DNA of 57,385 nucleotides from Nanobdellota archaeon (GTDB lineage Archaea; Nanobdellota; Nanobdellia; SCGC-AAA011-G17; GW2011-AR17). Position numbers and translations under genes: made by a program. The notes beneath the pieces are model-generated. The model was not told the DNA's origin. It saw nothing but the letters and a program-made list of their open reading frames with translations, and did not search any database. The DNA is taken from assembly GCA_013329215.1 (NCBI GenBank), contig DUKS01000012.1, positions 1-57,385 of the forward strand. Direction: 5' to 3'. The stretch's first letter is position 1, and each line of letters starts with the position of its first letter. Below, piece by piece: positions 2,022 to 53,537 of the stretch.

Positions 2022-2045
2022 TGTAAATGTGAGTTAAAGCTATGG

Positions 2046-2054: not shown

Positions 2055-2082
2055 GCTTTGCAAGAAAGCGTCGCTTTCTTTA

Positions 2083-2107
2083 GCGCACAAAGCTACGCTT
2101 TGTACGC
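2083..2107 (-). terminator. Hairpin directly downstream of the PAC2-like gene
   Basis: ACAAAGC-TAC-GCTTTGT 7-bp stem extended by 3 further pairs, 10 nt after the stop at 2117. Function as a terminator is inferred only. Confidence 0.3.
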
Positions 2108-2116
2108 TGCAAGAAC

Positions 2117-2863: not shown

Positions 2864-2904
2864 AACGAAAGAAAATATCAGGCGTGGTTTATAAAGCTGC
2901 TGGA

Positions 2905-5304: not shown

Positions 5305-6182
5305 TTCGGCTGCCTGTGCCCCCCAAACTCTTCCCTCAGCGCAGCTATAAGCTTTGACGAAAATGAAGGGGCCTGTAATGACCTTATCCTGGCGTCGTAA
5401 GCAGAAATAATGGAATCAAAATCCACACCCCTCTCACTTGCCTCTTGTATGGCCCAGCCCCCGCTTTCACCGCCGCCGATTTTACCGTTATAAGCAGAAA
5501 GCCTGGCATCCCTTTCAAGGCATCTTGTGATTAACTCCAATACCCATGAGCGTATAACACTGCCGTGTTCCCAGGCTTTGGAAACCTGCGCTAAGTCAAT
5601 CCCGGGCTCTGTTTGCAAAAGCCCGAAGCCTTCTGCATAAGCCTGCAGCATTCCATATTCAATTGCATTATGCACCATCTTCACAAAGTGCCCTGCACCG
5701 CTTTTCCCGATATAATGCACGCCATCTTTTGCAGCCATTGCCATAAACGCAGGCAGGGCAAAATCAAACGCTTCCCTTTCGCCACCGACTGTAAAGCTTG
5801 CCCCGTTTGCGGCTCCTTCCAGGCCGCCGCTCGTACCTGAATCCAGATAGCACAAGCCTTTCGCCCTAAGCTCTTCTGCGCGCCTAACAGAATCCCTGTA
5901 AAAAGAATTGCCCGCGTCTACTATAACATCCCCTTTGCTTAAGTAAGGGGCAATTCCGCCGAGCGTATCATCAACCACGCCGGCCGGCACCATCAGAAAT
6001 ATCAGCCTTCTTGGGGCCAGCTGTGCAACCATATCCGGCAGGGAATCTGCCTTATTTATTCCTGCAATGCTGTTTAATGCTGCACGGTCTGTATCATATC
6101 CAGTCACAGAATTGCCTGCATTAACAAGCTGCGATGCAAGCCTTCCGCCCATCCTCCCCAAACCTGCAATGCCAATTTTCAT
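5301..6182 (-). CDS. 6-phosphogluconate dehydrogenase (decarboxylating)-like, short form
   Basis: N-terminal Rossmann IGIAGLGRMGGRLA. GTSGG..GHFVKMVHNAIEYGMLQAYAEGF is typical of Gnd/YqeC-type enzymes. ATGA overlap with the downstream gene. Confidence 0.75.
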   Translation of the reverse strand: MKIGIAGLGRMGGRLASQLVNAGNSVTGYDTDRAALNSIAGINKADSLPDMVAQLAPRRLIFLMVPAGVVDDTLGGIAPYLSKGDVIVDAGNSFYRDSVRRAEELRAKGLCYLDSGTSGGLEGAANGASFTVGGEREAFDFALPAFMAMAAKDGVHYIGKSGAGHFVKMVHNAIEYGMLQAYAEGFGLLQTEPGIDLAQVSKAWEHGSVIRSWVLELITRCLERDARLSAYNGKIGGGESGGWAIQEASERGVDFDSIISAYDARIRSLQAPSFSSKLIAALREEFGGHRQPK

Positions 6183-6183
6183 C

Positions 6184-7065
6184 TTACTTCAACCTCGAAA
6201 TTGCATAAGCGTACGCACCGATTATGCCTATGTCCTCGCCAAATTTTGTTGCGGTTATCTCAGGCACTGAATTTATGGTATATTGCTTTATTTCGCCATT
6301 AGGAGGGATTATGCTCTTAAACTGCTTTATGCCAAGCGTGCCCATTACGACAATAGCATCTGCAGGGAATGCATTCAGCATATTTCCAATGCCATGCGCA
6401 GTATAGCTTTTTGCAGTTTCAACAATTGCTATAGCCCATTTGCTGCCTTTTTTCGCACTTTCAAACACATCCTGGCAGGAAACAGCCATGCCCTGCTTTT
6501 TTGCCGTTTCCTCAATGCCATAGCCAGAAGCCTGCGCCACCCAGCAGCCCAACCGGCCGCAAGAGCATTTGTTTGCCAAAGAAGGGCTGCGCTCAAGCAT
6601 ATCATGCCCAAATTCCCCGCATGAGCCATGCATGGGCCTTCCATTAATTACAATGCCTGCGCCAATCCCTGTGCTTAATGCAAGAAGATAAAAATTTTCA
6701 GGTCTGTTGCCAAAATAAAGTTCAGCCATCACAGCCATATTCAGGTCATTATCAACAAAAACCGGCTCTTCACCAGCACCCAGCCCCGCCCTAATATCCA
6801 AAGGAGCATTAATGTGAAGAGGAGGGGCAGACTGAAGAATGCCGTTTTTAACCGGCCCCGGAAAGCCCATTGAAACGGCATCTATTTTCTGGTTTGCTTT
6901 GCTCCGCAACTGCTTTGAAACAGATTTAATCTGCTCCAATAGTTTTGATGGGTTCCCCCTTTCACTAGCTACCTGCACTTGGCAGATCATCTCATAAGGA
7001 TTGGCTTTTTTGATTAAGGCGCCTTTTATCTTTGTGCCGCCGATGTCATAGCATTCTATTATCAT
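6184..7065 (-). CDS. ROK-family sugar kinase (glucokinase-like)
   Basis: DIGGTKIKGALI N-terminus. ROK signature LSTGIGAGIVINGRPMHG..GEFGH and zinc motif CSCGRLGC. Confidence 0.8.
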   Translation of the reverse strand: MIIECYDIGGTKIKGALIKKANPYEMICQVQVASERGNPSKLLEQIKSVSKQLRSKANQKIDAVSMGFPGPVKNGILQSAPPLHINAPLDIRAGLGAGEEPVFVDNDLNMAVMAELYFGNRPENFYLLALSTGIGAGIVINGRPMHGSCGEFGHDMLERSPSLANKCSCGRLGCWVAQASGYGIEETAKKQGMAVSCQDVFESAKKGSKWAIAIVETAKSYTAHGIGNMLNAFPADAIVVMGTLGIKQFKSIIPPNGEIKQYTINSVPEITATKFGEDIGIIGAYAYAISRLK

Positions 7066-9882: not shown

Positions 9883-11100
9883 ATGCAAAAGCGGTTATTA
9901 TTCGGTATAATGCTTGCTGTAATAATGCTTGCGGGCATTGCAATGGCAGAAGAGCAGTGCTCTGCATCTGAAGAGGCGTGCGCTGCAGCACCGCCTAGCG
10001 GATACTCTGAAACAGGGAGCAGCCTGTTTACGCCAGCTTCAGGCGATGCAATCTGCATAATATACTTCTACGGCGACGGGTGCCCGAACTGCGCAAAGCT
10101 TCACCCTTATATCGAGGAAGTAAAGGCAAAGTACGGGGGCAAGATAGCTGTCTACGAATATGAGATATACCACAATGTAAAGAATTACCAGATGTACAGC
10201 AGCTACTGCGGGATACAGGAAATACCGCTTGAAAAAAGGGGGGTCCCGTTCCTTGCGGTAGGCAATGCATATTACATGGGAGTCACGCAGATACAAACAA
10301 ATCTTGAGCCGAAGATAAAAGAGATGCTGGAATCAGGCGAAAGAATCTGCCCTCTTCCTGAAGCTGGCGTGTGCGGCGATGTAAAGCCGGGGACTGACTC
10401 AAACACGGCAATAAAGGATTTCAAGGAAAAGATTTCATGGGGCGTTGTCGTAACAGCAGGCCTGGTTGACGGAATAAACCCGTGCGCGTTTGCGGTGCTG
10501 ATATTCCTTTTGACATTCCTGCTTGAAGTTTCAAACAGCAGGAGAAGGATGCTGAAGATAGGGCTTGTGTACACAGGCGCTGTGTATGTTTCATACTTCC
10601 TTGCAGGGCTGGGCATATTGAGCGTAATACAGGTAAGCGGATTCGCAGGCTGGATTGTAAAAGCGGCTGCTGCTGTCGCAATATTTGCAGGGCTCGTGAA
10701 CATAAAGGATTATTTCTGGTACGGAAAAGGGTTTACGCTTGCGATACCTGAATCAAAGAGGGGATTGATTGAGAAATGGACAAAAAGGGCAAACATCCCG
10801 GCTGCGGTTGTGCTGGGATTCCTTGTCTCAATGTTTGAGCTGCCGTGCACAGGCGGCGTGTACCTTGCAATACTTGCAATGCTCGGCAATTCAGTGACAA
10901 CTGCGCAGGCAGTCATCTATCTGCTTGTCTACAATGTGCTGTTTGTCCTTCCGCTGCTGGCCATCACAGGGCTTGTGGTGCTTGGTATGAAGGCAGAGCA
11001 CCTTGAGAAGTGGAGAACCTCAAGGAGAAACCTGATGAAGCTGGGGCTTGGATTGCTGCTTCTGCTATTGGGAATAGCAATGCTGATGGGGTGGATATGA
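9883..11100 (+). CDS. Secreted thioredoxin-like domain fused to a CcdA/DsbD-type thiol-disulfide transporter membrane domain
   Basis: Signal peptide. CPNC in IYFYGDGCPNCAKL. DsbD-family motifs GINPCAFAVLIFLL and ELPCTGGVYLAIL within ~6 TM helices. Confidence 0.75.
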   Translation: MQKRLLFGIMLAVIMLAGIAMAEEQCSASEEACAAAPPSGYSETGSSLFTPASGDAICIIYFYGDGCPNCAKLHPYIEEVKAKYGGKIAVYEYEIYHNVKNYQMYSSYCGIQEIPLEKRGVPFLAVGNAYYMGVTQIQTNLEPKIKEMLESGERICPLPEAGVCGDVKPGTDSNTAIKDFKEKISWGVVVTAGLVDGINPCAFAVLIFLLTFLLEVSNSRRRMLKIGLVYTGAVYVSYFLAGLGILSVIQVSGFAGWIVKAAAAVAIFAGLVNIKDYFWYGKGFTLAIPESKRGLIEKWTKRANIPAAVVLGFLVSMFELPCTGGVYLAILAMLGNSVTTAQAVIYLLVYNVLFVLPLLAITGLVVLGMKAEHLEKWRTSRRNLMKLGLGLLLLLLGIAMLMGWI

Positions 11101-11110
11101 AGGAGAAAAG

Positions 11111-11305
11111 ATGGCAAAATACGAAATTATTGTGCACGAAGGATGCATTGGGTGCGGCAACTGCGAGGCTGTTTGCCCGAAATCATTCAAGCTGAAGGAC
11201 TGCGTATCACACCCTGTTAAAAGGCTTGTTGAAAAACTGGCATGCGAGAAAGAGGCTGAAGAACAGTGCCCTGTGCAGGTTATTGAAGTGAAGGAAGCCA
11301 AATAA
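11111..11305 (+). CDS. Small 4Fe-4S ferredoxin
   Basis: CIGCGNCEAVCP plus distal CP (EEQCPVQ). 64 aa. Confidence 0.75.
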   Translation: MAKYEIIVHEGCIGCGNCEAVCPKSFKLKDCVSHPVKRLVEKLACEKEAEEQCPVQVIEVKEAK

Positions 11306-11314
11306 GGTGAATGA

Positions 11315-11731
11315 ATGAAATATATAACTGCAATCGTGCTCATGGCAGTGCTTGTCCTTGCATACGGTTGCGCGCAAAAAGCAATACCGGAAAGCCAATA
11401 TCCGGCTGCTGATGAAAAAGCTGAAAACATTCTCCAGGGCATCAGCAAAGAAGACTATGCGATGCTGAGCAGGGACCTGTCAGAAACATTAAAGCAAAGC
11501 ACGGATGCGGAATATTTCAGCAGGCTAAGCAAATTCATAAAAGAAAACAGCGGGGAATATGTTTCAAAATCGCTTGCCGCAAGCAAGGATGAAAACAGCA
11601 TGCACACGCGGGGCTATGACTGCCAGTTCAGCATGGAATCAGTGTACTTCACAATCACGTTCAATGCAGATTACAGCAAAGTGGAAGGCATATACTTTGA
11701 TTCTGAAAACATGAGGAAGGCGCTTGAATAA
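11315..11731 (+). CDS. Hypothetical lipoprotein
   Basis: Signal plus lipobox-like LAYGC at the N-terminus. No recognised domain. Confidence 0.45.
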   Translation: MKYITAIVLMAVLVLAYGCAQKAIPESQYPAADEKAENILQGISKEDYAMLSRDLSETLKQSTDAEYFSRLSKFIKENSGEYVSKSLAASKDENSMHTRGYDCQFSMESVYFTITFNADYSKVEGIYFDSENMRKALE

Positions 11732-39756: not shown

Positions 39757-41141
39757 ACAGAAAAGCGGTTGCTGTGCTTGCTATATCCGCAATCGGGTTC
39801 CTTGTGGCGATTATATTATTCTATAACAAGGCCATCAACCTTGTCCCGGGCCCGCCTGCCGAATACCTCGGCGAAACCCAGGTCAAGGTGTATGGAGCAT
39901 ACATTGAGGGGGAAAGGCAGCTGCTTTACATTGACATGGCTGCAGAATATGCATTTGACGCTGCAGGCGGGGCTGAAAAGCTAAGCGCAGCGAATGACGG
40001 ATTCCTGGTAAGGTTCGGGCTTGAATTCTCAGGATACCTGGACAAGTTTAACAGCATGTTTAACGCAGGCTTAAACATTTCAAATTACACATTTTATGCT
40101 GACAATACGGGAATATGGGGGGTCTGCAACAAGGACCTGAACCTGACAACAGAGCTTTACGATTATAAGTTCAGGCCTAACTTCAGGGTTGCTGCAAAGA
40201 ACAGGCTGCCGCAGGAAGTGCAGCAGCACTATGAAGAGCAGGCTCAGGAAGCTCCTGCAGAGGAGCCTGTGCAGGAAGTGCCGGCAGAGGAAGAAACGCC
40301 AGTAGAGCTTGTTTCCGGCAATGTAAAATTCGTTGTAATGAGCGATATCCACACATTCCCGGAGGGTGGCCGGGCTTTAAGGATAGCGGCCGCAGATGCT
40401 GTAAAAGCATTAAACCCGGACCTGGTGGTTATGACCGGCGACATTGTGTCAGGCGACCCGGATACAACACTTGAATCAAGAGTAACAGCAATGTGGAGCC
40501 TGTTTGACACTGAAACAAGAAGCAGGCTGGGCAGCATACCTATTGCAGCCCTCGGCGGGAACCATGACATGTATACATCCCAACTATTGGAGGGATACAC
40601 AAATTACTGGAATGAACATCGGCCCGCCCTTGATGTAACAGGCAATTACCCGCTTTATTATTCATTTGACTTCAACAATGTGCATTTTGTCATGCTTAAG
40701 AGCAACAGGGCGCGTATGGAAGAGTCGCAGCTCGAATGGCTCGCAGATGACCTCGGCAATGCAAAATCCGAAGGCAAGGCTTCATTGGTGTTTTCCCATT
40801 ACGCCCTTGCCGCCATGAAACTAAACGACCCGGATGTGCTGCAGCCAAATGCAAGGCTTAAGGACATCTTAAAGCAGAACAATATTATAGCATTCATACA
40901 TGGCGACACGCATGTCTTTTTCAGGGGACTGACAGACGGGATTAATGTAATAAATCTAGCGTCTGTTGCCGGCGTAAAAAGAAAGCTGGCCGGCGCAGAA
41001 ACGAACACGCCGCGTATGATAATGGTCGGGGAAATAAGCAACGGGCAATTAAGCACTTATGAGCTCATAGAGCCGGATTATCTCACGCAAAGGTTTGACG
41101 AAAGCGTGATTGCGGGCATAAGGCCACCAGGCTTTAGCTAG
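39753..41141 (+). CDS. Membrane-anchored extracytoplasmic calcineurin-like metallophosphoesterase
   Basis: N-terminal TM helix. Motifs VVMSDIH, MTGDIVSGD, GGNHD, FSHYAL, IHGDTH. ATGA overlap with the upstream gene. Confidence 0.7.
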   Translation: MNRKAVAVLAISAIGFLVAIILFYNKAINLVPGPPAEYLGETQVKVYGAYIEGERQLLYIDMAAEYAFDAAGGAEKLSAANDGFLVRFGLEFSGYLDKFNSMFNAGLNISNYTFYADNTGIWGVCNKDLNLTTELYDYKFRPNFRVAAKNRLPQEVQQHYEEQAQEAPAEEPVQEVPAEEETPVELVSGNVKFVVMSDIHTFPEGGRALRIAAADAVKALNPDLVVMTGDIVSGDPDTTLESRVTAMWSLFDTETRSRLGSIPIAALGGNHDMYTSQLLEGYTNYWNEHRPALDVTGNYPLYYSFDFNNVHFVMLKSNRARMEESQLEWLADDLGNAKSEGKASLVFSHYALAAMKLNDPDVLQPNARLKDILKQNNIIAFIHGDTHVFFRGLTDGINVINLASVAGVKRKLAGAETNTPRMIMVGEISNGQLSTYELIEPDYLTQRFDESVIAGIRPPGFS

Positions 41142-42348
41142 CCGCCCTTCTTTTGATTTTCCTTGCAACGCCAAAAACAGGGAACCCTATTGTCAGCGCA
41201 GCCAGAATGTCTGACAAAGGCCTGCCAAGCCCGAGCATTGCATATAGGCCCCTTACAATGGAATAGCCTGAAGCGAGATACTCTCCGATAATGTCAATTA
41301 ACCCGCCATTTACCTTATCTATCTGCTGCCCGCTCTTTTTCTCCAGGGCCTGCTTTTCAATATCATCCGCCTTTGCAAGTATCTCTGCCCTATCATTAAA
41401 GTAATCAGCATCTGCAAGGCCTGTTTCAATCCTGCTGCAGATATCCTCCGCAGTTCCGTAATGCCCCAATGAGATTTCTGCTTCCGCCTGTGTAATTAAG
41501 ACGGAATATTCCTGCCCCATATCTTCCTGAAGCCTCTCACTAAAGGAGTCCGTCATTTCAATCATGCGCGAAGAATAATACTTGTGCCCGCCCCTTAACT
41601 TAAAAGCAAGCCTTTGGCCGCATGCGTGTGCCTCACCATATTTTTCAGACAAGAGGTATGTTTCGCATTCGGCTAATTCATCCAGTGCTTCACAGTAAGA
41701 AGAATTCTGCGATGCATTCCAGTCTGTATAAGCATGTATCCCTGTGCATACAGCTGTGCCCAGCAGACCGGCAGCAGCAAGCCCGAGAAGCGGGTATTTC
41801 AGGCGCGCCATTGCTGGATTAAACCCACCCCCGCCTTCTCTATCGCTTCTTCCCGCGCCATGCTGCGCCCTGTACCTTGATGAAAAGTCGTTTGCAATGT
41901 CTTCTATCGGCTTTGAACTGTCTATGGTGTATCCTGCTTTGCCTGCCAATGCATCCGCAAACAATATAGCTTTCAGCTGCTGGATATTCCTTGCTTTCAG
42001 CACAAGCGATTTCGAGCCTCTTGCTTCAAGCTCGCGGATGTAAACAGCAGCCGCCATTTTGTCCGCTGCATCAGGATCGCCTGCGCTAATGCCTGAAGAA
42101 GATATCGCAACCGGTGTTTCACAACAGGCATAAAGCAGACCTCCCCCCAAATCATGCCGGCTGCAGCCTGCGTAATCCGCGCATATAACCTCTTTCACGC
42201 TATAAGCGCCAACCATTCTGCCGAGCACGCCGCGGTCCATTGACCCGACAAAATAATCCAGCAGCAGCTGCTTGTCAAGGCTCAACCCCGTGTTTTTTGG
42301 CCTGCGTTTTCCTGCGATTATCTGTGCCGCACAGTCAACATCCCGCAT
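41134..42348 (-). CDS. Hypothetical membrane protein: ~200-aa cytoplasmic N-domain, a TM helix, ~150-aa outside domain and a C-terminal hydrophobic segment. Last gene of the E1/JAB operon.
   Basis: ATG 42348 overlaps the AsnC-like gene stop by 14 nt. TM YPLLGLAAAGLLGTAVCTGIHAY. The longer track ORF (to 42492) overlaps the regulator gene. Confidence 0.5.
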   Translation of the reverse strand: MRDVDCAAQIIAGKRRPKNTGLSLDKQLLLDYFVGSMDRGVLGRMVGAYSVKEVICADYAGCSRHDLGGGLLYACCETPVAISSSGISAGDPDAADKMAAAVYIRELEARGSKSLVLKARNIQQLKAILFADALAGKAGYTIDSSKPIEDIANDFSSRYRAQHGAGRSDREGGGGFNPAMARLKYPLLGLAAAGLLGTAVCTGIHAYTDWNASQNSSYCEALDELAECETYLLSEKYGEAHACGQRLAFKLRGGHKYYSSRMIEMTDSFSERLQEDMGQEYSVLITQAEAEISLGHYGTAEDICSRIETGLADADYFNDRAEILAKADDIEKQALEKKSGQQIDKVNGGLIDIIGEYLASGYSIVRGLYAMLGLGRPLSDILAALTIGFPVFGVARKIKRRAAS

Positions 42349-42760
42349 CTTCCTGCTTAACCTCCTCAACAATAAAATGCGTACGTTTTGAACTGCAAAG
42401 CCTTGCAGCCTGCTCCTCAAATTCATAATATGCTCCCATATTGCGGAATATCGCCGTTGCCATGACAGCAAACCTGCCTGAAGACACTGCAAGCGAGTTG
42501 GTGTTCCGGCTCTTTTTTAAAAATGACAAAAGCCTCCTGCTTTTCGGGTGGAACAGCATGAGCGCGTGCACTTCAAAACCGAGCGCCTTAAAATCAGGGA
42601 GAGTTGTGTATTTCAGCATCTTAGCCTCCGCGCGCTTAAGCGCCCTCATTGCAGTTTGCCTTGACATGCCCAGCTTGCTTGCAATCCCGGACAGCCTCTG
42701 CCTGGGGTCACGCCTAAGCTCCCTTACTACCTCATTCTCATAACCGTTCAATTGCACCAC
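42335..42760 (-). CDS. Lrp/AsnC-type HTH regulator inside the E1/JAB operon
   Basis: HTH RLSGIASKLGMSRQTAMRALKRAEA followed by a RAM-like beta-alpha-beta (FEVHALMLF..). Apparent GTG start overlapping the E1-like gene by 23 nt. Confidence 0.6.
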   Translation of the reverse strand: MVQLNGYENEVVRELRRDPRQRLSGIASKLGMSRQTAMRALKRAEAKMLKYTTLPDFKALGFEVHALMLFHPKSRRLLSFLKKSRNTNSLAVSSGRFAVMATAIFRNMGAYYEFEEQAARLCSSKRTHFIVEEVKQEDAGC

Positions 42761-44081
42761 CCTGTTTATGGCATTTGCAGCCTCTGATTATATTGCATGC
42801 GCACTGCCTTTCGGCAGGCAGGTAAGACACTTTTTCTGTAAGCTGTTTTTTTGAGAAATACAGCATCTGCCTCCCGGAACTTTCAAGCCCGGTTAAAGAA
42901 GCACCCAGCTCGGCCGCCATCATCGCGCCCGCAAACGCATTGCACATAACAATGTTCGATTCCTGCATTGTATTGCAGGCCTGCGGCTGCGTGCTTGCCT
43001 GTTCAACATTTCCTCTTCTGCATTCCAGGCAAATGTTGTGATTGTATATGTCAAGCCTTGCCGTAAAAGGGCCAACGCCGGCATCGATTAAAACAATGTT
43101 GTTTGCAACAGCATACCTGCTCAAAAGCTCCCTTGCGCCCCAATTGTCAACGCACGAGAGCACAGCAGAATATTTTTTGCCTGCAGTTTTTGCTTCATTC
43201 TCATCAAAAAACCTGCCGAACGCGCGCATATTCGCTCCAAGCAGGCTTTCGAGCCTTTGCTTAAGCACAGCAGCCTTATTCCTGCCTATTGCATCATAGT
43301 ACAGCACCTGCCTGTTTAGGTTTGTCGCATCAATATCATCGCCGTCATAAACATCAAAAGGAATCCTGAGGCAGGCAAGGTTCAAAGCAGCGTACGTGCC
43401 TATCCCGCCTGCGCCAACAACAAGCACCCGCCCGCTTTTCAGCCTGGGAAACGAAACAGCCTTTTCTGCCCTTACAGAATCCGCTATTGACATTTTTCTG
43501 AAAAACCTGCCTTTCGCAAAAAGATTATAGTTTAAAACTCCGGAAACAGCCTCATCCCCTTCAAGCCCAAGAAGCGCTTTTCTTATTTCGTCCAGTGCAA
43601 TTGCAGCGATTAAGCCTGACGAAAACGAGCCCTGCTCTTTTCCATTATACCTGCGCATGGCTGCTGTTTCCAGGCAAGCATGGCCTTTTTCCCCACTGTA
43701 GCCTGCATATATTGATGCGGAAATATCATCGCTCGAAGCGCTTACAAAAAGCCTTGCCTTCCCTGCATATTCACATGCAGCTTGTTTTGAGGCTTCATTG
43801 TTTGTGAAATCAGCAACAACATCAGCAGGCCCTATGCTTCCGGCGTTTGCGGCAGTATTCAGGCGTATTTCCGGGTTTATTTCACTAATGAGTCTTTCAA
43901 GCGGTTTTTTAAACAAGTGCCGCTGCCTATGATTTTGCTGCACCAGTGTTATGTTTCCTATCCCCAGGCCAGCCATGTACAGCAATGCGTAATCACTTAC
44001 CATTGAATCCCCCACCAGCACAACACGGCTGTTTCTAAGTATAGCCTGGTCAAAAACAGATGACTGCCTTGTATAGTCCAT
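42738..44081 (-). CDS. E1-like (ThiF/MoeB/UBA superfamily) enzyme with tandem domains: degenerate N-terminal and intact C-terminal adenylation domain
   Basis: C-terminal half: RVLVVGAGGIGTYAALNLA, DGDDIDATNLNRQ, SCVDNWGAR, CLEC ... CACNIIRGCKC. N-terminal half: same fold pattern but GDSMVS replaces GxGxxG, and LVQQNHRQRHLF replaces DxDxxxxSNLxRQ. Confidence 0.8.
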   Translation of the reverse strand: MDYTRQSSVFDQAILRNSRVVLVGDSMVSDYALLYMAGLGIGNITLVQQNHRQRHLFKKPLERLISEINPEIRLNTAANAGSIGPADVVADFTNNEASKQAACEYAGKARLFVSASSDDISASIYAGYSGEKGHACLETAAMRRYNGKEQGSFSSGLIAAIALDEIRKALLGLEGDEAVSGVLNYNLFAKGRFFRKMSIADSVRAEKAVSFPRLKSGRVLVVGAGGIGTYAALNLACLRIPFDVYDGDDIDATNLNRQVLYYDAIGRNKAAVLKQRLESLLGANMRAFGRFFDENEAKTAGKKYSAVLSCVDNWGARELLSRYAVANNIVLIDAGVGPFTARLDIYNHNICLECRRGNVEQASTQPQACNTMQESNIVMCNAFAGAMMAAELGASLTGLESSGRQMLYFSKKQLTEKVSYLPAERQCACNIIRGCKCHKQGGAIERL

Positions 44082-44082
44082 A

Positions 44083-45081
44083 TTAGTTCACATTTGTAAC
44101 CCTGCTAATGCCCGGGGCTCCTGTTATTCTCTGTCTCTCAAACCGGCTGTCTGTGAGGAAAGCATACGGCTTTGCATTGCTCCTGTATTCCTCTGTGAGC
44201 ACAGCCCTTGCCTTTTCCATCAATGCCTCAAGCTGCAGCTTCGGATTGTCAGGATGCAGCCTTTTTATTGAGCCATAATCATACCTGCCTGTGCATATGC
44301 ACTGCAATGGCTTTCCGGCAGCAGGAAGCGAAGGGTGGCTGTAAGGGTTAAGCACATAGAGCTTGCCAAAGTCAACCGAATCCGCGTTCATGAATACAGG
44401 GGCGCCCACTTCTGCCTCTCCAAAGCTGTAGTAAGCGCCGTTCTTTCTCTCATAAAGGATGTAAGGCTGTATTTTTGTGAAAACATAGAAGCGACTGTCC
44501 ATTATCCTAAAGCCCACCTGCTTTTCATTGTCATAAAAAATCCCTTCTGCAATGCTGTCCAAAGCCATACGCAGGGGGCTGCCTGCCGCGCGTTTCCTTA
44601 TTTTTTTCTTATAATCCGCTTCAATATCACTTACTGCTGCTATGTGCGACAAGCCAAGATTAAAATTTCTTCCTCTAACAAAAATATCCCCCCGGCTGGA
44701 TTCAAAAAGCGGATACACCATAGAATTAAGAAAAAGCAGTTCCTTCTTTGGCAGGACATGCTCTGCTATCGCACCGCCGCCCACAGCGCCCGAAAGCTGC
44801 GTGATAACAAGCAGCGCAGGCTGCAAATGCGGGCTTTGTGTTCCGGATTCTGCCTTTGTCCTTATTGCGGAAAGCAGGCCCGAATGCATCCCTGATTTTG
44901 CCAGATAATCCTGCTCAAGCATCGGGATTGTTGTTTTTTGCACAAGCCCGATTCTGCATCCGAAAAAGTCCATATACGCGCCCCCATAGCCATTGCATGC
45001 CTGATAAACAGCAGGATAGACAATAACGCACGGGCCTTCTGAAAAATACCTGAAGAATGTGTCAGGAACAGGCATGCCCAT
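44083..45081 (-). CDS. Hypothetical protein; the C-terminal ~140 aa is a candidate E2 (UBC-like) domain
   Basis: YVLNPYSHPSLPAAGKPLQCICTGRY resembles the E2 HPN-loop-Cys signature. It is preceded by beta-strand-like segments (FYVFTKI, YILYERKNG, YYSFGEAEV) and followed by a helix. Inference only. Confidence 0.3.
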   Translation of the reverse strand: MGMPVPDTFFRYFSEGPCVIVYPAVYQACNGYGGAYMDFFGCRIGLVQKTTIPMLEQDYLAKSGMHSGLLSAIRTKAESGTQSPHLQPALLVITQLSGAVGGGAIAEHVLPKKELLFLNSMVYPLFESSRGDIFVRGRNFNLGLSHIAAVSDIEADYKKKIRKRAAGSPLRMALDSIAEGIFYDNEKQVGFRIMDSRFYVFTKIQPYILYERKNGAYYSFGEAEVGAPVFMNADSVDFGKLYVLNPYSHPSLPAAGKPLQCICTGRYDYGSIKRLHPDNPKLQLEALMEKARAVLTEEYRSNAKPYAFLTDSRFERQRITGAPGISRVTNVN

Positions 45082-46465
45082 CACCCGGATTAAGTGTTTT
45101 CATATTCTCTGCAAGCTGTTTTGATTTTCCAATGCACCTGCCCGCATACTCTCCTGTGCTGATTATGCCTAATGCCTCATTCACAGCATCCTTGTGTATT
45201 TGCTCCAACACCCCCGATTCCTCCAGCCTTGCAATGCATTCTTCAACCTTGTCCAGCCTTTTTTCATAGTCTGCTGCGTTCCCGTCAAACACACCGGACA
45301 ATGCGGCAAACATGTCCACTACAGCCTTGTCAGCATCCATATGATTTCTGTGGCCATGCCTGTAAAAGTCAACTGAACCGAGGAAAAGCTGCACATACAA
45401 AAGGTGCAGTTCCCTTGCGCCATTAAAGTATTCATTGTTTGACTTGTAAGGTGCCTGGGAAACAATTGCTTCCTGCTTTTCCCCCGGATTTAATATGCCT
45501 TCAAGCCGTTTTTTGGCAGGTAGCCTGCTGCAGGCAGGAATATGCCTTGCTGTTTCTTCCTGCGAAATGGATTCAACAGACTTTATGCGCGACGCAAAGC
45601 GCAATGCAGATTCCCGGTCTCCAAGATTAATCCTGAAAATGCCATGGCTGCTTTTGAGCTCAACGCTGTTATCCCTTGCTATTGCTTCAAATGCAGGCCT
45701 CTCCCTCTCCGCCATTGCAAGCGGCTGCGCAAACTGCAGCTTTCTTTTGAATAGCTCTGTGTCTTTCAGCCTGGCGGCATGCTCTCTTTGATTGTCAAGC
45801 GAGAAAGAATATTTTTCCCCAATCTCCGCAAGATGCTCCTGCGGCAGGCAAACATTCGGCATTGAGCAGGCTGCCAGCCCAAGCCCGGCTTTTGTGTGCT
45901 TCAATTCCCCGCCCTTAATGCTGAACAGCTCTGCAAGATATTTGCCATTGCCTTTCGTATAAGCCCCTGCATTTATCACTATGCTTAAGAACGAAGAAGG
46001 CAGAACCTCTTCAACTGATTTTATGCAGTATTCGGTTCCCGCCTCAAGCATTATGCGCCTGCCCTGCATTGTCTGCGCATTAAACAGGTCCAGGCACGGG
46101 CCGCCTGCATTAAAATCCCAGCGCCCGGCCTTTTCATTATGCTTTTTCATTGCAGCAAGCTTTGACTTTATATGTTCGTGGTCTGTATGCGAATGAAAAA
46201 GCCCGTGCACGCCGTGGCTGTGCCACATGCCAACAAGGTGTGCGCCTGCCTTGTATAGGTCCATGCACGGGAACTCTGATGCAGAAGCCCTTGATATTGA
46301 GCCGTACTGCTCGGGAAAAAAGAAGCCCGTAATCCTGCCGCTGCCTTTTTCTGAATAGAGATACCCCATGCATTCTATATCTTTTCCAGCAAAGCCTGAG
46401 ATTTCCCTTGCATAAAGGCACATTTCGGCGAATACAGCCGCTTCCAGATTCACGTATTCTTTCAT
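45062..46465 (-). CDS. JAB/MPN (JAMM) metalloprotease with a ~370-aa C-terminal extension of unknown function
   Basis: Upstream Glu in KDIECMGYLY and a complete HSH-x7-S-x2-D (WHSHGVHGLFHSHTD, nt 46181-46222). ATG 46465 forms an ATGA overlap with the upstream stop. Confidence 0.8.
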   Translation of the reverse strand: MKEYVNLEAAVFAEMCLYAREISGFAGKDIECMGYLYSEKGSGRITGFFFPEQYGSISRASASEFPCMDLYKAGAHLVGMWHSHGVHGLFHSHTDHEHIKSKLAAMKKHNEKAGRWDFNAGGPCLDLFNAQTMQGRRIMLEAGTEYCIKSVEEVLPSSFLSIVINAGAYTKGNGKYLAELFSIKGGELKHTKAGLGLAACSMPNVCLPQEHLAEIGEKYSFSLDNQREHAARLKDTELFKRKLQFAQPLAMAERERPAFEAIARDNSVELKSSHGIFRINLGDRESALRFASRIKSVESISQEETARHIPACSRLPAKKRLEGILNPGEKQEAIVSQAPYKSNNEYFNGARELHLLYVQLFLGSVDFYRHGHRNHMDADKAVVDMFAALSGVFDGNAADYEKRLDKVEECIARLEESGVLEQIHKDAVNEALGIISTGEYAGRCIGKSKQLAENMKTLNPGDGHACS

Positions 46466-46887
46466 CTGCACCCTACATCATCGTAGCGCTTTACAGCCAT
46501 GTCAAGGCAGTCATAAGCTATGCCGTCAGCTGTATGCCGCTGGTCAATATAGCCCGCAACCCTGTCATCAAGGCGTATGATTTCTGTTTCAGCGCCTATG
46601 CGCTTTTTTTTGGTGTTGTCTGCATTATACACGCGCACTTCGCAAAATGTGTTTGCGCCGTTGTGCGCTGCAAGGTATTCTTTTATTTCAGGAGCGGCCC
46701 CTTCCTGGCTGTTGCCTGCAATTTCTTCAATGACTTCCCTGAACGTGGCTTTTCTCAGCCTGTCATCAAGCTCTGCATAAACAGCCCTTGACTCGTAATC
46801 AGCTTTTTCAGCTGCGTCTTTCGCGCCCGCCGCCTTTTGCCTGTTCACTTCTGTGTTCACTATGCCCACAAGTTTGTTCTCACCCAT
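46462..46887 (-). CDS. Hypothetical protein, first gene of the E1/JAB operon
   Basis: 141 aa from ATG 46887, with AGGAG 9 nt upstream; alternatives are ATG 46896 and TTG 46917. No recognised motif. C-terminus is ..KRYDDVGCR. Confidence 0.45.
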   Translation of the reverse strand: MGENKLVGIVNTEVNRQKAAGAKDAAEKADYESRAVYAELDDRLRKATFREVIEEIAGNSQEGAAPEIKEYLAAHNGANTFCEVRVYNADNTKKKRIGAETEIIRLDDRVAGYIDQRHTADGIAYDCLDMAVKRYDDVGCR

Positions 46888-46931
46888 CTTTTTCATCTCC
46901 TGAGCCGAAGCCCGCAATTACCCTGTATTCG

Positions 46932-46941
46932 TTTTTAATAA
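46932..46941 (-). promoter_or_regulatory. TATA-like box of the E1/JAB operon
   Basis: Minus-sense CCTTATTAAAAAC, ~40-50 nt upstream of the candidate start codons. Confidence 0.4.
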
Positions 46942-46963
46942 GGATTGCCGAAAAAAAACATCA

Positions 46964-47043
46964 GGATTTTCAGCAGAATGGAAAAATCCCGCAGAACTTC
47001 CGTAAAAACAACGGGAATTTCCTGCCTTTGCATTGGAAATTCC
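46964..47043. promoter_or_regulatory. Two related inverted repeats upstream of the E1/JAB operon
   Basis: GGAATTTCC-N12-GGAAATTCC (47014-47043, perfect 9-bp arms) and GGATTTT-N12-AAAATCC (46964-46989). Confidence 0.5.
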
Positions 47044-47081
47044 GGTTATGGCGAAAAGCGCCTCTGAGAATAAAGATTTGC

Positions 47082-47726
47082 TTACCTATAGCATTTTTTC
47101 AAGTTTTTTTTTAATTTCCTGAAGTCTTTTTCAACTGTCTTTTCCGCCTTTTTCACGTCCTTCTCAACATCTTCAACTTCCTCAAGCTCATGCAAGTGGT
47201 GCTTGCCTGTGGGCTTTTCATAGAACGGAATTGCCTTGACTAGCCTTGGCGCCCTTGCAACCGGCCTCATAATCCTTAAAACGCGCTCTGTCCTGCTTAT
47301 CTTGCCTGCGGCTTCCGCCTCTTTTATCAGCTTCTCGCTTTCGCCAAACAGCTTTGCAAACTCTTCCCTACCCTGGACAATCGTGTGCAGTATTGACTGG
47401 CCTTCCTTGACCTCTGCAGAGAACCTTGCAAGGAAAACAACTTCCTCAACAAGCCTGAATACCAGGACGAACGGAAAAACAGCTATTATGTCAATCCAGC
47501 ATTCCTTAAAGAAGGTCTTGAAGTTTCTTATCCTGTTGTACTTGAACCCGAGGTCCACGATGAATAAAGAGATTATGGCATAATCCCCAATCTCAAGGTA
47601 AAGTGCATAATGCTCTGCAAACTCCTTGAAAAAGATGTTAATTATTATGATGCCTGCGAGCAGGATTAATGCATAAGGTATAGCCCTGTCCACGAAGGAT
47701 TCCACCTTGTGAAGCCATAGTTTCAT
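47082..47726 (-). CDS. Membrane protein resembling an isolated voltage-sensor (S1-S4-like) domain, with no pore domain
   Basis: Three TM helices including the S3-like WIDIIAVFPFVLVF. An Arg-every-third segment RVLRIMRPVARAPRLVK appears after a ~45-aa insert. Charged C-terminal tail. Confidence 0.35.
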   Translation of the reverse strand: MKLWLHKVESFVDRAIPYALILLAGIIIINIFFKEFAEHYALYLEIGDYAIISLFIVDLGFKYNRIRNFKTFFKECWIDIIAVFPFVLVFRLVEEVVFLARFSAEVKEGQSILHTIVQGREEFAKLFGESEKLIKEAEAAGKISRTERVLRIMRPVARAPRLVKAIPFYEKPTGKHHLHELEEVEDVEKDVKKAEKTVEKDFRKLKKNLKKCYR

Positions 47727-47999: not shown

Positions 48000-48578
48000 T
48001 TACGACAGCTTCAGCGTCCTCTGCTCTGTGAAAATGACATTCTTGTTTTTTAAGAAAGCAACAATCCTTGCCTCGCTTTCTGCAGGCACCAAAATGGAGC
48101 CCCTTCCCGCAACTTTCCCTTTTATTTCCGCAAGCAGGCCCTCGCCTTTTTTTCTCCCGTATAATGCGTATGAAAACATCACTTTCTCAGAAGCGGTCTT
48201 ACCTGCAAGCAAATAGGTTATAAGAAAGTAAGGCGCAACGCCGAGAAGCTCTTTTATTGATTTATTATGCCTTACGCTGAATCCCTCGTGAAGCACTGAA
48301 AGAAGCACTGGCTGAAACAGCTCCTCTGCAAACATCGGCTCTGTATGAAGGCTGATGCCTAACGAATCTGCCGCCTTTTTTGCCGTGTATAAAATGTTTT
48401 CCGCAGCCCTGTAATTCTTTTCCCTGAAAAAGCCGATTACATCTATGTCATTAGGATGCTCCTTTCCTTTCACTGCAGAGCCGAATATGAAAATGTCAGC
48501 AAGCAGCTTTTCTTTTTTTAGCAAGCTCTGCAATTCGTTTAAAAGCTTCTTCCTCTGTTGGGATGTCAATTGCTCCAT
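48000..48578 (-). CDS. Minimal nucleotidyltransferase (MNT)-domain protein
   Basis: FIFGSAVKGKEHPNDIDVIGF (GS..D.D motif). Confidence 0.65.
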   Translation of the reverse strand: MEQLTSQQRKKLLNELQSLLKKEKLLADIFIFGSAVKGKEHPNDIDVIGFFREKNYRAAENILYTAKKAADSLGISLHTEPMFAEELFQPVLLSVLHEGFSVRHNKSIKELLGVAPYFLITYLLAGKTASEKVMFSYALYGRKKGEGLLAEIKGKVAGRGSILVPAESEARIVAFLKNKNVIFTEQRTLKLS

Positions 48579-48894
48579 TTTTAAAAGCCTCCGTTACCTT
48601 TTCCCTTACTATTTCAAGCTCTTCCCTTGAAAGCTCCCTTGTATAAGTTCTCCTGTAAGTGCTGAACAGCCTGTCTGTAATGTCGTAAAGCGCAGGAATA
48701 TGCGCCTTAAGCATTTCAAACCGCTCATTGTGATCATTTGGAGCATGCTTCAGCTTTTCCTGCAGCGCCAGGTCATCAACTGCAAAAAGCGCCTTGAAAT
48801 AGTTTGAGCCTGACTCTGCGCGCATCCCCATCTTTTCCGCCAATAATGCAATGAGGAAATAGTTCCTTGCCTTTTCTTTAAGCACTTCAGCCAT
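48496..48894 (-). CDS. Helical HEPN-like partner of the MNT protein
   Basis: All-helical 132 aa. Candidate R-x6-H (RFEMLKAH). 83-nt overlap with the MNT gene. Assignment is tentative. Confidence 0.4.
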   Translation of the reverse strand: MAEVLKEKARNYFLIALLAEKMGMRAESGSNYFKALFAVDDLALQEKLKHAPNDHNERFEMLKAHIPALYDITDRLFSTYRRTYTRELSREELEIVREKVTEAFKNGAIDIPTEEEAFKRIAELAKKRKAAC

Positions 48895-50211: not shown

Positions 50212-50340
50212 TTTAGCCCTCCTTATTATTACGTGAAGGCAGAATGCATTAGTTAAACTTTTAGCTTATACTATATATATTAGTTAAATTCTATATATTT
50301 CAGGAAAACGTTTAAATAGTTGAATAGCGCCTCTTTTTCC

Positions 50341-51219
50341 ATGCAAAGGAAACTAATACAGCTCTCGCCTTCAACAGCAGTCGTGTCCATGCCATCTTCA
50401 TGGGTGAAAGCCAACAGGCTGAAGAAAGGGCAGCAGGTTTCTGTGGATGTGCAGGACAACAGAGTCGTGGTTGCAGCAGAAAGCAACAAGGCGGAAAATG
50501 AAGTTAAGCTTGACATCTCAAAGCTGGAAGGCAAGCTTGTCTGGATTGCAATAGACGCTGCGTACATTGCAGGGCACGATTCAATCATTATCAGCACCAA
50601 GGACGCTGCGCAGGCTGCATTGATGGGAAAAGTGGTAAGGTACTTTCCCGGCATGATGATTTTTGACGAAAGAAAGAATATGGTGCATTTCAAGTCCATT
50701 GCAGGGCAGGACAGGGAAGACGTCGGAAAAATTCTTAGCAGGATATTCAACCTGGACATATCAATGGCGGAAGACGCAGCCGGCATGATAAAATCAAGGG
50801 ACTACAGTAGCCTTGCCGGCATGAAAAAAAGGGATTATGCAATAAACAGCTACATAAGCTACTGCAACAGGCAGATAAACAAGTTTGGCTTTTCGCCATT
50901 CTCAAAAACAGGCGTTATGCACACCTACCTGAAATTATTGGAAATGCTCGCTGATGCAATGTCTGCGCTTTTTGTTGAGATTGGTGAGAATAAGGCAGGC
51001 ATTGGAACAGAGCCGGTTAATATGCTCGCAGAGCTGCTTAAGCACCTGCAGGCAATGCATGCAAGCTTCAGCAATGAAAAGCTAATCCTGTCTGAAGAGA
51101 AAAGGCAGGCTGCGCTGAAAAAAGCAAAAAGCATGCCTTCAGTTGTGCGCCACCCATACAGCAGGGTTATGGAACTTTTCTTTGACCTGGAAGAGCTTGA
51201 GCTGCAGATGAACGGCTGA
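50341..51219 (+). CDS. AbrB/SpoVT-domain plus PhoU-like regulator (archaeal phosphate-uptake-regulator type)
   Basis: MQRKLIQLSPSTAVVSMPSSWVKANRLKKGQQVSV (SpoVT-AbrB) followed by a helical PhoU-like region. TTTAAATA lies ~25 nt upstream (leaderless). Confidence 0.6.
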   Translation: MQRKLIQLSPSTAVVSMPSSWVKANRLKKGQQVSVDVQDNRVVVAAESNKAENEVKLDISKLEGKLVWIAIDAAYIAGHDSIIISTKDAAQAALMGKVVRYFPGMMIFDERKNMVHFKSIAGQDREDVGKILSRIFNLDISMAEDAAGMIKSRDYSSLAGMKKRDYAINSYISYCNRQINKFGFSPFSKTGVMHTYLKLLEMLADAMSALFVEIGENKAGIGTEPVNMLAELLKHLQAMHASFSNEKLILSEEKRQAALKKAKSMPSVVRHPYSRVMELFFDLEELELQMNG

Positions 51220-52462: not shown

Positions 52463-53029
52463 ATGGATAATAAGATGACAATAATAAACTATCTAGGAAA
52501 GAACAAAGGAAAGCGGCCGACAATGAATGCATTGAGCAAGGCAGTGAAAGTCCCATATGCCACATTCCACAGACTGATTAGCCATATGAAAGGGCTTGTA
52601 GTGCTTGATACAATTGGCAAGGCGAAGGTGGTTTCGCTCAATACTGGAAACCCTGCCATAAAATCATACCTTTCGGTAAGCTCTGAAGAGGAAAAAAATG
52701 ATTTCCTTGAGAGGCAGCCAATAATACGGAAGATTGCATCAGAGCTTGATACAAAAGATATTGTATTGCTCTTTGGCAGCTATGCAAAAGGCAAGGAAAA
52801 GGAAAGATCGGACATAGACATAATGGTTGTCAATACCAAAGGGGAAAGAAGCATTTCATTCTCAAAGTATGAAGTGATGTTCAGGAAAAAAATCAATGCG
52901 CTGTTTGTTGCAAAACCAGAATTAAGGCAAATGCTCAGGGAAGAAGGGGAAAATGTGGGGAAGCAGGCGCTTGAAAGCCATATCCTGCTTAACAATTCAG
53001 AAGGGTTTTGGGAGTGTGTGTATGGATGA
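52463..53029 (+). CDS. Winged-helix plus minimal nucleotidyltransferase (MNT) protein
   Basis: LLFGSYAKGKEKERSDIDIMVV. N-terminal wHTH-like segment. TATA ~27 nt upstream. Confidence 0.7.
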   Translation: MDNKMTIINYLGKNKGKRPTMNALSKAVKVPYATFHRLISHMKGLVVLDTIGKAKVVSLNTGNPAIKSYLSVSSEEEKNDFLERQPIIRKIASELDTKDIVLLFGSYAKGKEKERSDIDIMVVNTKGERSISFSKYEVMFRKKINALFVAKPELRQMLREEGENVGKQALESHILLNNSEGFWECVYG

Positions 53030-53537
53030 GTATAAGGAATTCTTCAGCGAAATGCTGGGAAAACAGCTTATAACAAAATCAGATTCCCTCTTCAAGATAA
53101 AGCTTTTTCTTAAGAAAGGCGAGAACAGCCTTTTAATAGCGAAGCATAACAAAGATATAAAACCGAATAAAGGGGAAGCGGGCAAGATTTACTGGAATTA
53201 CTGGGCAATAATCATCTCTTATTATTCAATGCTTTACTGCGCAAAAGCGCTGATTCTTTCAAAAGGGTATGAAGTGCATACGCATGACGCATGCCAAGCT
53301 GCATTGGGCTATCTGTGCGTGCCGAATGAGATGGAAGAAGAGGATTTGGAAATGCTGAACCAGTCATACAAGATATTCGAGGATGAATACGTGAAGTATT
53401 TTGAGGATGCAAAAGCGGAAAGTAGGATTGCAAGGTATTCGGCCATAAAGGCTTACAGCGAAAGAAGGCTTGATGAAATCTTTGAGAATGCAAGGAAGTT
53501 TGTGGCGAAAGTGGCTTTGGTTTTGCAAGAGTATTGA
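53022..53537 (+). CDS. HEPN-domain protein (partner of the MNT)
   Basis: SYYSMLYCAKALILSKGYEVHTHDACQAAL is typical of archaeal HEPN partners. 8-nt overlap with the MNT gene. Confidence 0.6.
   Translation: MDEYKEFFSEMLGKQLITKSDSLFKIKLFLKKGENSLLIAKHNKDIKPNKGEAGKIYWNYWAIIISYYSMLYCAKALILSKGYEVHTHDACQAALGYLCVPNEMEEEDLEMLNQSYKIFEDEYVKYFEDAKAESRIARYSAIKAYSERRLDEIFENARKFVAKVALVLQEY

Follow-up and report, generated by a model that had tools for sequence, protein, structure and literature searches.

We propose that the first gene (gene 1) of an operon encoding E1-like, JAB and putative E2 proteins in a Nanobdellota archaeon probably encodes the ubiquitin-like modifier of that operon, made as a precursor in which the C-terminal glycine is masked by a tail of two residues. 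The operon lies in the window, by which we mean the whole stretch of 57,385 nucleotides that was analysed (contig DUKS01000012.1). An earlier reading of these letters without database searches (hereafter the sequence-only reading) had raised the masked modifier as a speculation, and computation now supports it through the predicted fold of the protein, the conservation of its glycine and the linkage of the gene to the rest of the operon. An E1/E2-like/JAB operon with no tag is uninterpretable; with the tag identified, the cassette can be tested, since it comes down to four small proteins and a single defined glycine. If correct, the assignment extends complete Bil-like ubiquitin-type cassettes to the DPANN archaea and adds a family of ubiquitin-like proteins (Ubls) that sequence methods had missed, namely a 141-aa beta-grasp protein with large inserts and no Pfam or PDB sequence match. 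It would also bear on the breadth and age of ubiquitin-type protein tagging outside eukaryotes.

The operon and the search for its modifier

Table 1. Features of the operon, in coordinates of the window
Feature	Position	Strand	Basis
Gene 1, putative ubiquitin-like beta-grasp modifier precursor, 141 aa	46462..46887, stop included	-	ORF, translation, homologues, model, structural matches
Gly139 codon (proposed reactive C-terminal Gly of the mature form)	46471..46473	-	GGG; alignment column and model
Cys140-Arg141 tail codons (removal proposed)	46465..46470	-	Homologue tails variable in length and sequence
ATGA overlap of gene 1 stop and JAB start	46462..46465	-	Read from sequence
AGGAG Shine-Dalgarno-like box	46897..46901	-	Read from sequence; 9 nt upstream of gene 1 ATG
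JAB/JAMM metalloprotease, 467 aa from ATG, long C-terminal extension	45062..46465	-	Pfam Prok-JAB, E 2.4e-5, residues 33-104
333-aa orphan protein in E2 position	44083..45084	-	H250-P251 ... I263-C264
E1, degenerate N-terminal ThiF-like domain and intact adenylation domain	42738..44081	-	Pfam ThiF, E 3.6e-38, two stretches
AsnC/Lrp-type winged-helix regulator at operon end	42335..42760	-	Pfam HTH_24 and HTH_AsnC-type

As shown in Table 1, all the features lie on the same strand. Gene 1 opens with an ATG at position 46887, and its homologues share the same start methionine. At its other end, the TGA (46462-46464) overlaps the ATG of the JAB gene (46463-46465), so that the ATGA coupling described in the sequence-only reading is indeed present, and translation of the open reading frame gives the C-terminus described there, ..Y-D-D-V-G139-C140-R141.

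The JAB/JAMM protein carries an intact HSH-x7-S-x2-D motif, which is found also in the JAB genes of related loci, and it is our candidate for the enzyme of both tail trimming and deconjugation. The 333-aa protein has no match in Pfam, PADLOC or the PDB sequences, and its alignment profile found nothing significant among the PDB sequences. Among its 14 homologues the H, P and I of the motif in Table 1 are invariant and C264 is nearly so, and in the second of two gene orders (see below) its gene directly adjoins gene 1; we call it a putative E2 on the strength of this HP..C motif and of its position. In the E1, the Gly-rich ATP loop is kept in the second ThiF stretch only, and the alignment retains GAGGxGT, NxNRQ, K269, D312, C351-x2-C354 and an invariant C369, with a C-x-C close to the C-terminus in most homologues. 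PADLOC assigned the E1 to CBASS E1-E2 models only, and its best matches among PDB sequences were ThiF, SAE2 and Cap2. Judged by the motifs that they keep, among them the ATP-binding and catalytic residues of the E1, the JAMM, the E1 and the 333-aa protein look competent. No UBC or RING domain was detectable in the operon with Pfam. The AsnC/Lrp-type regulator is retained in loci L008-L010, L036 and L080.

The sequence-only reading had found no ORF ending in Gly in or next to the operon, and none resembling ubiquitin or ThiS; on both points it was right. Between 40 and 49 kb only six stop-to-stop frames end in Gly, of 31-55 codons each, and we rejected all of them as genes, as they either run across real genes in another frame or fall in the promoter gap with no usable start (in the promoter-gap frame at 46918-47085, no ATG, GTG or TTG would begin a product of at least 40 aa). 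The Pfam ubiquitin, Prok_Ub and Multi_ubiq models matched nothing across the whole genome, and the ThiS model matched only outside the window. Nor was gene 1 recognised by such models: 25 family members gave no match at E<=0.1 to ubiquitin (PF00240), ThiS (PF02597), Prok_Ub (PF14454) or Multi_ubiq (PF14452), PADLOC returned no match for gene 1, and its alignment profile found nothing significant, and no Bil chain, among the PDB sequences. The genome does encode a small bona fide Ubl at another place, as the sequence-only reading had allowed: a 63-aa ThiS-like protein ending ..SGG, encoded on another contig and flanked by ThiI-like and TtuA/Ncs6-like tRNA-thiolation genes. Given these tRNA-thiolation neighbours, and a second, canonical ThiF-type E1 (240 bits) in the genome, we do not take it for the missing modifier of the operon.

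Predicted fold, conserved glycine and gene linkage

Structure prediction had been suggested as a way to look for a beta-grasp, and a beta-grasp is what it returned. The AlphaFold2 model of the gene 1 protein, built from a 25-sequence alignment, reached a pLDDT of 89.7 and a pTM of 0.82, with pLDDT <50 solely at residues 139-141 and disorder from residue 139 on. A confident model required this alignment, as the six close homologues alone gave a useless one (pLDDT 45.9). In the model, strands 6-12, 36-40, 80-87, 115-118 and 124-136 form one beta-grasp that spans the entire protein together with about 55 residues of inserts. Helical inserts are placed between strands 1 and 2 and past the main helix, and a long loop joins strands 3 and 4. 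The strand-rich C-terminal ~70 aa, which the sequence-only reading had singled out, do not make a domain of their own in the model; strands from both ends of the protein build the single beta-grasp instead. Past the last strand there is a short flexible stub, Asp-Val-Gly139, and then Cys-Arg.

We compared the model with 48,161 PDB chains using VIA-align, a search independent of Foldseek. The best 50 matches were all ubiquitin-type beta-grasp domains (Z 6.4-4.8), and each of these 50 covered the whole target domain. Among them were the TBCE Ubl (Z 6.4, rmsd 2.7 over 83 residues), FAT10 and the bacterial multi-ubiquitin 9d5b (both Z 5.9), Citrobacter BubA (Z 5.8, 75/75 residues), BilA (Z 5.2), SAMP1 (Z 4.9) and ISG15. 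Values of Z 5-6.4 are middling, and a Z <8 may mean just a common arrangement; the fold argument holds because the match list is uniform and not because of any one Z-score. Foldseek gave no match at E<=0.001 against the PDB or viral structures, and its lists contained mostly Ubl or beta-grasp domains with non-significant E-values. An ESM Atlas look-up of gene 1 gave no usable feature match, its structure rows having TM <0.4 with a poor Atlas model. The gene 1 protein is predicted with high confidence to be a ubiquitin-type beta-grasp enlarged by inserts.

The glycine on which the masked modifier depends is conserved in homologues. The column aligned with Gly139 holds Gly in 42/51 family members, and its identity (86%) is the highest of the last 20 alignment columns, the columns near it reaching <=57% and those after it 15-30%. 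Six of the 51 members terminate exactly at this Gly. Over the 51 sequences, a median of 2 residues (range 0-30) follows the Gly, and these residues are unrelated in sequence. The conservation of Gly139 exceeds chance. The stretch YDDVG is invariant in the six close homologues, in front of tails reading CR, SRCI, ACAY.., GRCRY.. (30 aa), CR and ICI; in more divergent relatives the C-terminus consists of a hydrophobic strand, five to six residues, GG and a tail. Nine of the 51 have no aligned Gly: three of these have a conserved SPLEK tail after an Ala or Ser in its place, and in two a GG is displaced by two residues. In the clade of the window, the next start codon lies 1-9 nt past the Gly codon, so that the tail is translated across the gene overlap; its Cys seems to arise incidentally from the start codon with which the next gene overlaps gene 1.

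Gene 1 homologues consist of a set with 59-67% identity plus 19 more distant sequences. A third search, with a 36-sequence profile, added only three Woesearchaeota entries, and a six-sequence alignment used to search for related loci found three close loci. Every full-module locus examined contains gene 1, the 333-aa protein and the E1, arranged in one of two gene orders (g1-JAB-333-E1 and g1-333-E1-JAB), and all of these loci but one have a JAMM gene as well. Wherever a locus has a tail-bearing modifier and readable genes after the E1, a JAMM gene is there; in locus G147, the modifier ends at the Gly and the module has no JAMM gene. A strict link between the tail and the JAMM gene is ruled out by locus L079, where the modifier ends in GG and yet a JAMM gene is present; trimming is therefore not the sole role of that JAMM protease. 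Proteins of the 333-aa family were found in 36 of the 401 sampled genomes of the phylum (~9%). The source organism of the window is known solely from a groundwater metagenome; four DNA sequencing runs of a single groundwater study may be where this DNA comes from, and no RNA data set was listed with them.

Other possible roles of gene 1

Gene 1 might encode a beta-grasp subunit that is not conjugated, an adaptor or a regulator, with a structural Gly and a retained tail, while the enzymes act on another substrate. As in type II CBASS, this could for instance be the C-terminal end of some other protein. Beta-grasp domains frequently act as adaptors, the type II CBASS E1-E2 does act on the C-terminus of a non-Ubl protein, and the nine sequences with no aligned Gly would suit such a subunit. 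We nevertheless consider this unlikely. A structural Gly is not expected in a disordered stub past the last strand, nor at precisely the residue after which conservation is lost and with which six proteins end, and no other protein of the operon has a conserved C-terminal Gly.

The same glycine could belong to a sulfur carrier of the ThiS/MoaD/QbsE type, exposed by the JAMM and adenylated by the E1, whose thiocarboxylate would serve a small molecule or tRNA with no protein conjugation. Sulfur carriers share the fold class and the E1 chemistry, JAMM-trimmed examples are known (QbsE and CxnE; PMC5925218), and many divergent members of the gene 1 family end in GG plus a tail. We consider this role improbable. 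Neither the operon nor the genes flanking it gave a Pfam match to a rhodanese, a sulfurtransferase or a biosynthetic enzyme that uses sulfur, the conserved HP..C protein is always present alongside, and the E1 is a single-chain pair of one dead and one live domain, a layout known from BilD and other conjugating E1s, whereas ThiF and MoeB form homodimers. Further, none of the 25 family members matches ThiS (0/25), and the genome already has its ThiS-like protein by the tRNA-thiolation genes, with a ThiF-type E1 of its own.

That ThiS-like protein, a recognised Ubl, already has its GG free, and the operon E1 could in principle act on it in trans, leaving gene 1 unrelated to modification. We hold this to be very improbable: the ThiS-like gene is on another contig, between the ThiI-like and TtuA-like genes, the genome has the separate canonical ThiF-type E1, and it is gene 1, not the ThiS-like gene, that accompanies the E1 in every locus examined. 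Least probable of all, and largely refuted by the spacing at divergent loci, is selection on the DNA itself, in which the Gly codon (GGR) would persist as a ribosome-binding element that serves the overlapping gene downstream. In the clade of the window this codon reads GGA or GGG, with the start codon 1-9 nt past it. Divergent loci, however, retain their Gly-Gly codons although the next start is 22-187 nt away, the Val in front of the Gly persists although all four synonymous codons are used for it, six proteins terminate at the Gly, and a Shine-Dalgarno element needs a wider spacing than 1-5 nt.

Related systems and a proposed mechanism

Taking gene 1 as the masked modifier, the closest known system is bacterial BilABCD. 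Bil operons encode the Ubl BilA, the E2 BilB, the JAB peptidase BilC and the E1 BilD (PMC10557695; bioRxiv 10.1101/2024.11.21.623966). BilC cleaves BilA between Gly97 and Ala98, and type II BilA homologues have <=9 residues past the conserved Gly (PMC10557695). Both systems have separate genes for the Ubl, an E2-position protein (a putative E2 in our case), a JAB/JAMM peptidase and an E1. In both, the N-terminal adenylation domain of the E1 is inactive and the C-terminal one active, a CxxC lies in the crossover region and a Cys pair near the C-terminus, and the archaeal E1 fits the BilD-like Cys4 zinc-site pattern (C351-x2-C354 conserved, C-x-C in most homologues). Both have a Ubl with one conserved Gly and a short variable tail, whose removal by the JAB is known in Bil. 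They differ in that Bil is bacterial whereas the present, putative system is archaeal (DPANN). The E1, the JAB and the profiles of the 333-aa protein and gene 1 found no match to Bil structures among the PDB sequences; the gene 1 protein is one beta-grasp with inserts in 141 aa, whereas BilA is a compact single or multiple beta-grasp; the E2-position protein here is unrecognisable by sequence; and an AsnC-type regulator is embedded in the archaeal operon.

Other systems share single traits with gene 1. UFM1 ends in Val-Gly once Ser-Cys has been removed by UFSP proteases (PMC9638016), so that the single-Gly mature end and the two-residue, Cys-containing tail resemble those proposed for gene 1 (Cys-Arg); it is however a compact Ubl of eukaryotes, 85 aa long, its tail is removed by cysteine proteases, and it has no sequence relation to gene 1. 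The ubiquitin operon of Caldiarchaeum subterraneum (PMC6043591, PMC5654768) is an archaeal operon in which a Ubl precursor is processed by an Rpn11-type JAMM and is accompanied by an E1 and an E2; that system has a recognisable ubiquitin, a UBC-type E2 and a RING E3, whereas with Pfam no ubiquitin is found in the present genome and no UBC or RING domain in the operon. In QbsE the GG is followed by Cys-Phe, removed by QbsD, and in CxnE by ten residues (PMC5925218). The QbsE/QbsD and CxnE/CxnF pairs thus resemble gene 1 in having a small beta-grasp protein, a tail after the Gly and a JAMM in the cluster that is proposed to remove it (PMC5925218), but they are of the ThiS/MoaD family and sit in biosynthetic clusters with rhodanese-bearing MoeZ-type E1s, all absent here.

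In the mechanism that we propose, a protease, most likely the operon JAMM, would strip Cys-Arg and expose Gly139. Adenylation of Gly139 would fall to the intact C-terminal domain of the E1, which would probably then load it onto the invariant Cys369, from where the 333-aa HP..C protein would receive the modifier on Cys264. The modifier would end on a target, by analogy on a lysine, and the JAMM enzyme could reverse the conjugation as well. We infer that the gene 1 protein is cleaved, adenylated and conjugated in this way.

A larger claim, which we put forward only tentatively and regard as rather doubtful, is that the operon represents a separate, archaeal-lineage ubiquitin-type conjugation system in DPANN, made of an enlarged tag whose Gly can be freed by trimming, a conjugating enzyme with a fold that no solved E2 shows, a minimal E1 that is a single-chain pseudo-dimer, and a long JAMM. 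With the 333-aa family as marker, such a system would be present in about 9% of the sampled genomes. If true, it might form a branch of its own next to the bacterial Bil/Bub systems and the ubiquitin operons of Caldiarchaeum and Asgard, and it could serve in conflict with viruses or with the host in these host-attached organisms. An antiviral or other conflict role, as for bacterial Bil, is our guess by analogy, made because of the patchy distribution and the toxin-antitoxin-like neighbours.

The operon and its first gene

The operon is tightly packed on the minus strand at 42.3-46.9 kb of the window, and an AGGAG box stands 9 nt 5' of the ATG of its first gene (gene 1). A sequence-only reading of this DNA had speculated that gene 1 encodes a masked modifier, whose glycine would be exposed if the JAB protease removed a terminal Cys-Arg. 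The features on which that reading relied are present: translation gives a C-terminus of Tyr-Asp-Asp-Val-Gly139-Cys-Arg, the gene 1 TGA overlaps the JAB start as ATGA, and no nearby gene ends in Gly, the six Gly-ending stop-to-stop frames at 40-49 kb being 31-55 codons long and none of them plausible as a gene. Searches of gene 1 against Pfam and PADLOC returned no match.

Features of the operon and its surroundings in the window
Feature	Coordinates	Strand	Remarks
Gene 1	46462-46887	-	141 aa
JAB/JAMM protease	45062-46465	-	
Orphan 333-aa protein	44083-45084	-	
E1, ThiF-type	42738-44081	-	two ThiF-like stretches
AsnC-type regulator	42335-42760	-	
452-aa protein	41134-42492		downstream of the regulator
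Ion-transport-like membrane protein	47082-47726		214 aa; upstream
MNT-type nucleotidyltransferase	48000-48894		overlaps a 132-aa ORF without Pfam match
AbrB/MazE-domain protein	50320-51219		
MNT-type nucleotidyltransferase	52463-53537		paired with a Pfam HEPN gene

Fold, conservation and synteny support the identification of gene 1 as the masked ubiquitin-like modifier (Ubl) of the operon. The JAMM enzyme would cleave its tail, the E1 would adenylate Gly139, and the modifier would then pass to Cys264 of the 333-aa protein and on to a target. The closest known system is bacterial BilABCD, whose four parts the operon would match with the 333-aa protein as putative E2, and the E1 layout described for BilD is that of the operon's E1 (PMC10557695). 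BilA and gene 1 alike have a single conserved Gly followed by a tail, of up to nine residues in BilA, which is pre-processed by its JAB protease between Gly97 and Ala98 (PMC10557695). For the terminus of gene 1 itself the nearest parallel is UFM1, from which Ser-Cys is removed to leave Val-Gly (PMC9638016). We found no description of such a system in DPANN archaea in the literature. The main mechanistic alternative is that gene 1 encodes a JAMM-trimmed sulfur carrier, as QbsE and CxnE are (PMC5925218); however, Pfam scans show no sulfur-transfer or biosynthetic gene in the operon.

The partner enzymes were examined by alignment and database search. The second half of the E1 retains GAGGxGT, NxNRQ, Lys269, Asp312, C351-x2-C354, an invariant Cys369 and a C-terminal C-x-C; the ATP loop is missing from the first half. 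In sequence, the solved structures nearest to the E1 are those of ThiF, SAE2 and Cap2, not BilD. The 333-aa protein has no match in Pfam or in PDB sequence searches, and an Atlas feature search leans weakly towards Prok-E2_D, a lead only. His250-Pro251 and Ile263-Cys264 are kept across 14 homologues, with Asp for Cys in one paralogue. Toxin-antitoxin-like accessory genes surround the operon, as indicated by the MNT, HEPN and AbrB/MazE genes nearby.

Predicted fold of gene 1 and other Ubls in the genome

An AlphaFold model built from six sequences was unusable (pLDDT 45.9), whereas a 25-sequence alignment gave pLDDT 89.7 and pTM 0.82, with pLDDT below 50 only at residues 139-141. The predicted order of elements is that of a ubiquitin-type beta-grasp (strands 6-12 and 36-40, helix 49-58, strands 80-87, 115-118 and 124-136), enlarged by a pair of helices that separate strands 1 and 2, by a further helix at 65-74 and by a long loop (88-114). 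When the model was compared with 48,161 PDB chains independently of Foldseek, all 50 of the best matches listed were ubiquitin-type domains, in agreement with the beta-grasp that the sequence-only reading had asked after. They include the Ubls of TBCE (Z 6.4, rmsd 2.7 over 83) and TBCB (Z 6.0), FAT10 and bacterial multi-ubiquitin (both Z 5.9), Citrobacter BubA (Z 5.8, 75/75 residues), ISG15 (Z 5.3), BilA (Z 5.2) and SAMP1 (Z 4.9), and re-alignment of Foldseek's top 1000 agrees. Since Z values below 8 are middling for this comparison and none of the Foldseek E-values was significant, what argues for the fold is that the list is uniform and that the matches cover full domains, rather than any one score.

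A small ThiS-like Ubl does exist elsewhere in the genome (1.4 Mb, 95% complete), but it does not travel with the operon. This 63-aa protein, ending ..SGG, is encoded in the window's own genome at G000:C46:73748-73939 (L001:1474-1665), with a ThiI-like gene on one side and a PP-loop TtuA/Ncs6-like gene on the other. At C54:7693-8376 the genome has a further, canonical E1 of ThiF type, and the 646-aa ORF beside it includes a stretch weakly resembling ThiS. The ThiS-like protein and this E1 look like the usual tRNA-thiolation/SAMP system.

The terminal glycine and its tail

A word-indexed search found five gene 1 homologues, 62-66% identical, of which one comes from a Nanoarchaeota MAG. YDDVG is invariant in this close set, and what follows the Gly varies in length and sequence (CR, SRCI, ACAYNRRSS, a 30-residue tail, CR and ICI). 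Searching 1.84 billion representative proteins with a profile added only 19 relatives (E 0.001 or better), 18 of them of 115-148 aa. The exception, P0010 (284 aa, JGI metagenome), has the gene 1 domain duplicated in tandem within a single chain and ends in Gly-Gly plus four residues, a two-domain architecture like that of ISG15 or FAT10. Named family members belong to Woesearchaeota or Nanoarchaeota, and none of 25 members matched a Pfam family.

As the masked-modifier proposal expected, the Gly is conserved. Among 51 sequences aligned with MAFFT (24 single-domain proteins plus ORFs from related genomes), 42 have it at the Gly139 column, and this column is the best kept of the last 20 (86%, against at most 57% for its neighbours and 15-30% for later columns). 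The preceding residue is Val in 24 sequences and Gly in 11. Six proteins terminate exactly at this Gly; the tails of the others span 1-30 residues (median 2). Among the nine exceptions, two have GG shifted by two residues, one has Gly one residue earlier, three lack any nearby Gly (two of these align there only through gaps), and the last three, which come from two genomes belonging to a single genus, carry Ala or Ser there, with a conserved tail starting SPLEK. In these genomes (G363 and G388; L029:224-637 and 1721-3154, and L030:7923-8867 and 5406-6839), an almost identical octapeptide, [AS]-S-P-L-E-K-x-[IL], recurs in the cognate E1, where it lies in an insert of the inactive half; the common segment could be a protease or docking motif.

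In the window's clade the start codon of the next gene lies 1-9 nt 3' of the Gly codon, so that the tails are the gene 1 frame read inside the next gene, and tail Cys is frequent because NNA-TGY spells the overlapping ATG. A DNA-level artefact, in which a GGR Gly codon serves as a Shine-Dalgarno element, is rejected, since divergent loci keep Gly-Gly codons 22-187 nt before the next start, the Val before Gly is drawn from all four synonymous codons, and several proteins terminate at Gly.

Linkage of the four genes across genomes

The window's gene order is kept in three Nanoarchaeota MAG loci, and in neighbourhoods of related loci the four genes also occur in another arrangement (gene 1, 333-aa protein, E1, JAB). 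Of 401 genomes sampled from the phylum, 15 have a match to the gene 1 profile and 36 to the wider 333-aa family. At the additional 333-aa loci the ORF immediately upstream is again of 134-168 aa; many of these ORFs are picked up by the gene 1 profile, and their C-termini run through a hydrophobic strand, five or six residues, GG and a tail. The 214-aa membrane protein adjoins gene 1 in related loci L008-L010 too (64-66% identity), where 218-224-aa ORFs matching C-terminal residues ~224-451 of the 452-aa protein occupy the same position as that protein; both are absent from loci with the second gene order.

A JAMM gene with intact H-x-H-x7-S-x2-D is present in all tail-bearing loci with readable genes past the E1. 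In genome G147 the modifier ends ..Arg-Val-Gly and the module is without a JAMM gene, a weak JAB-like ORF lying elsewhere in the genome. In G297 the modifier already ends ..Gly-Gly, yet a JAMM gene is present, so trimming cannot be the sole role of the protease.

A variant cassette in G036 (L028:4522-9866), with no E1 or JAMM gene within about 8 kb, contains genes for an HTH regulator, for a protein of 349 aa and for a transglutaminase-like cysteine peptidase (Pfam, 2.2e-13), as well as for a 333-like paralogue, a gene 1-like protein and another 333-like paralogue (hhalign probability 98.5%). In G229 (L032:6696-8958 and 10811-11464) tandem gene 1 paralogues end ..GG-CD and ..GG plus 11 residues, and the conserved Cys is replaced by Asp in an additional, shorter 333-like paralogue, a change reminiscent of inactive E2 variants.
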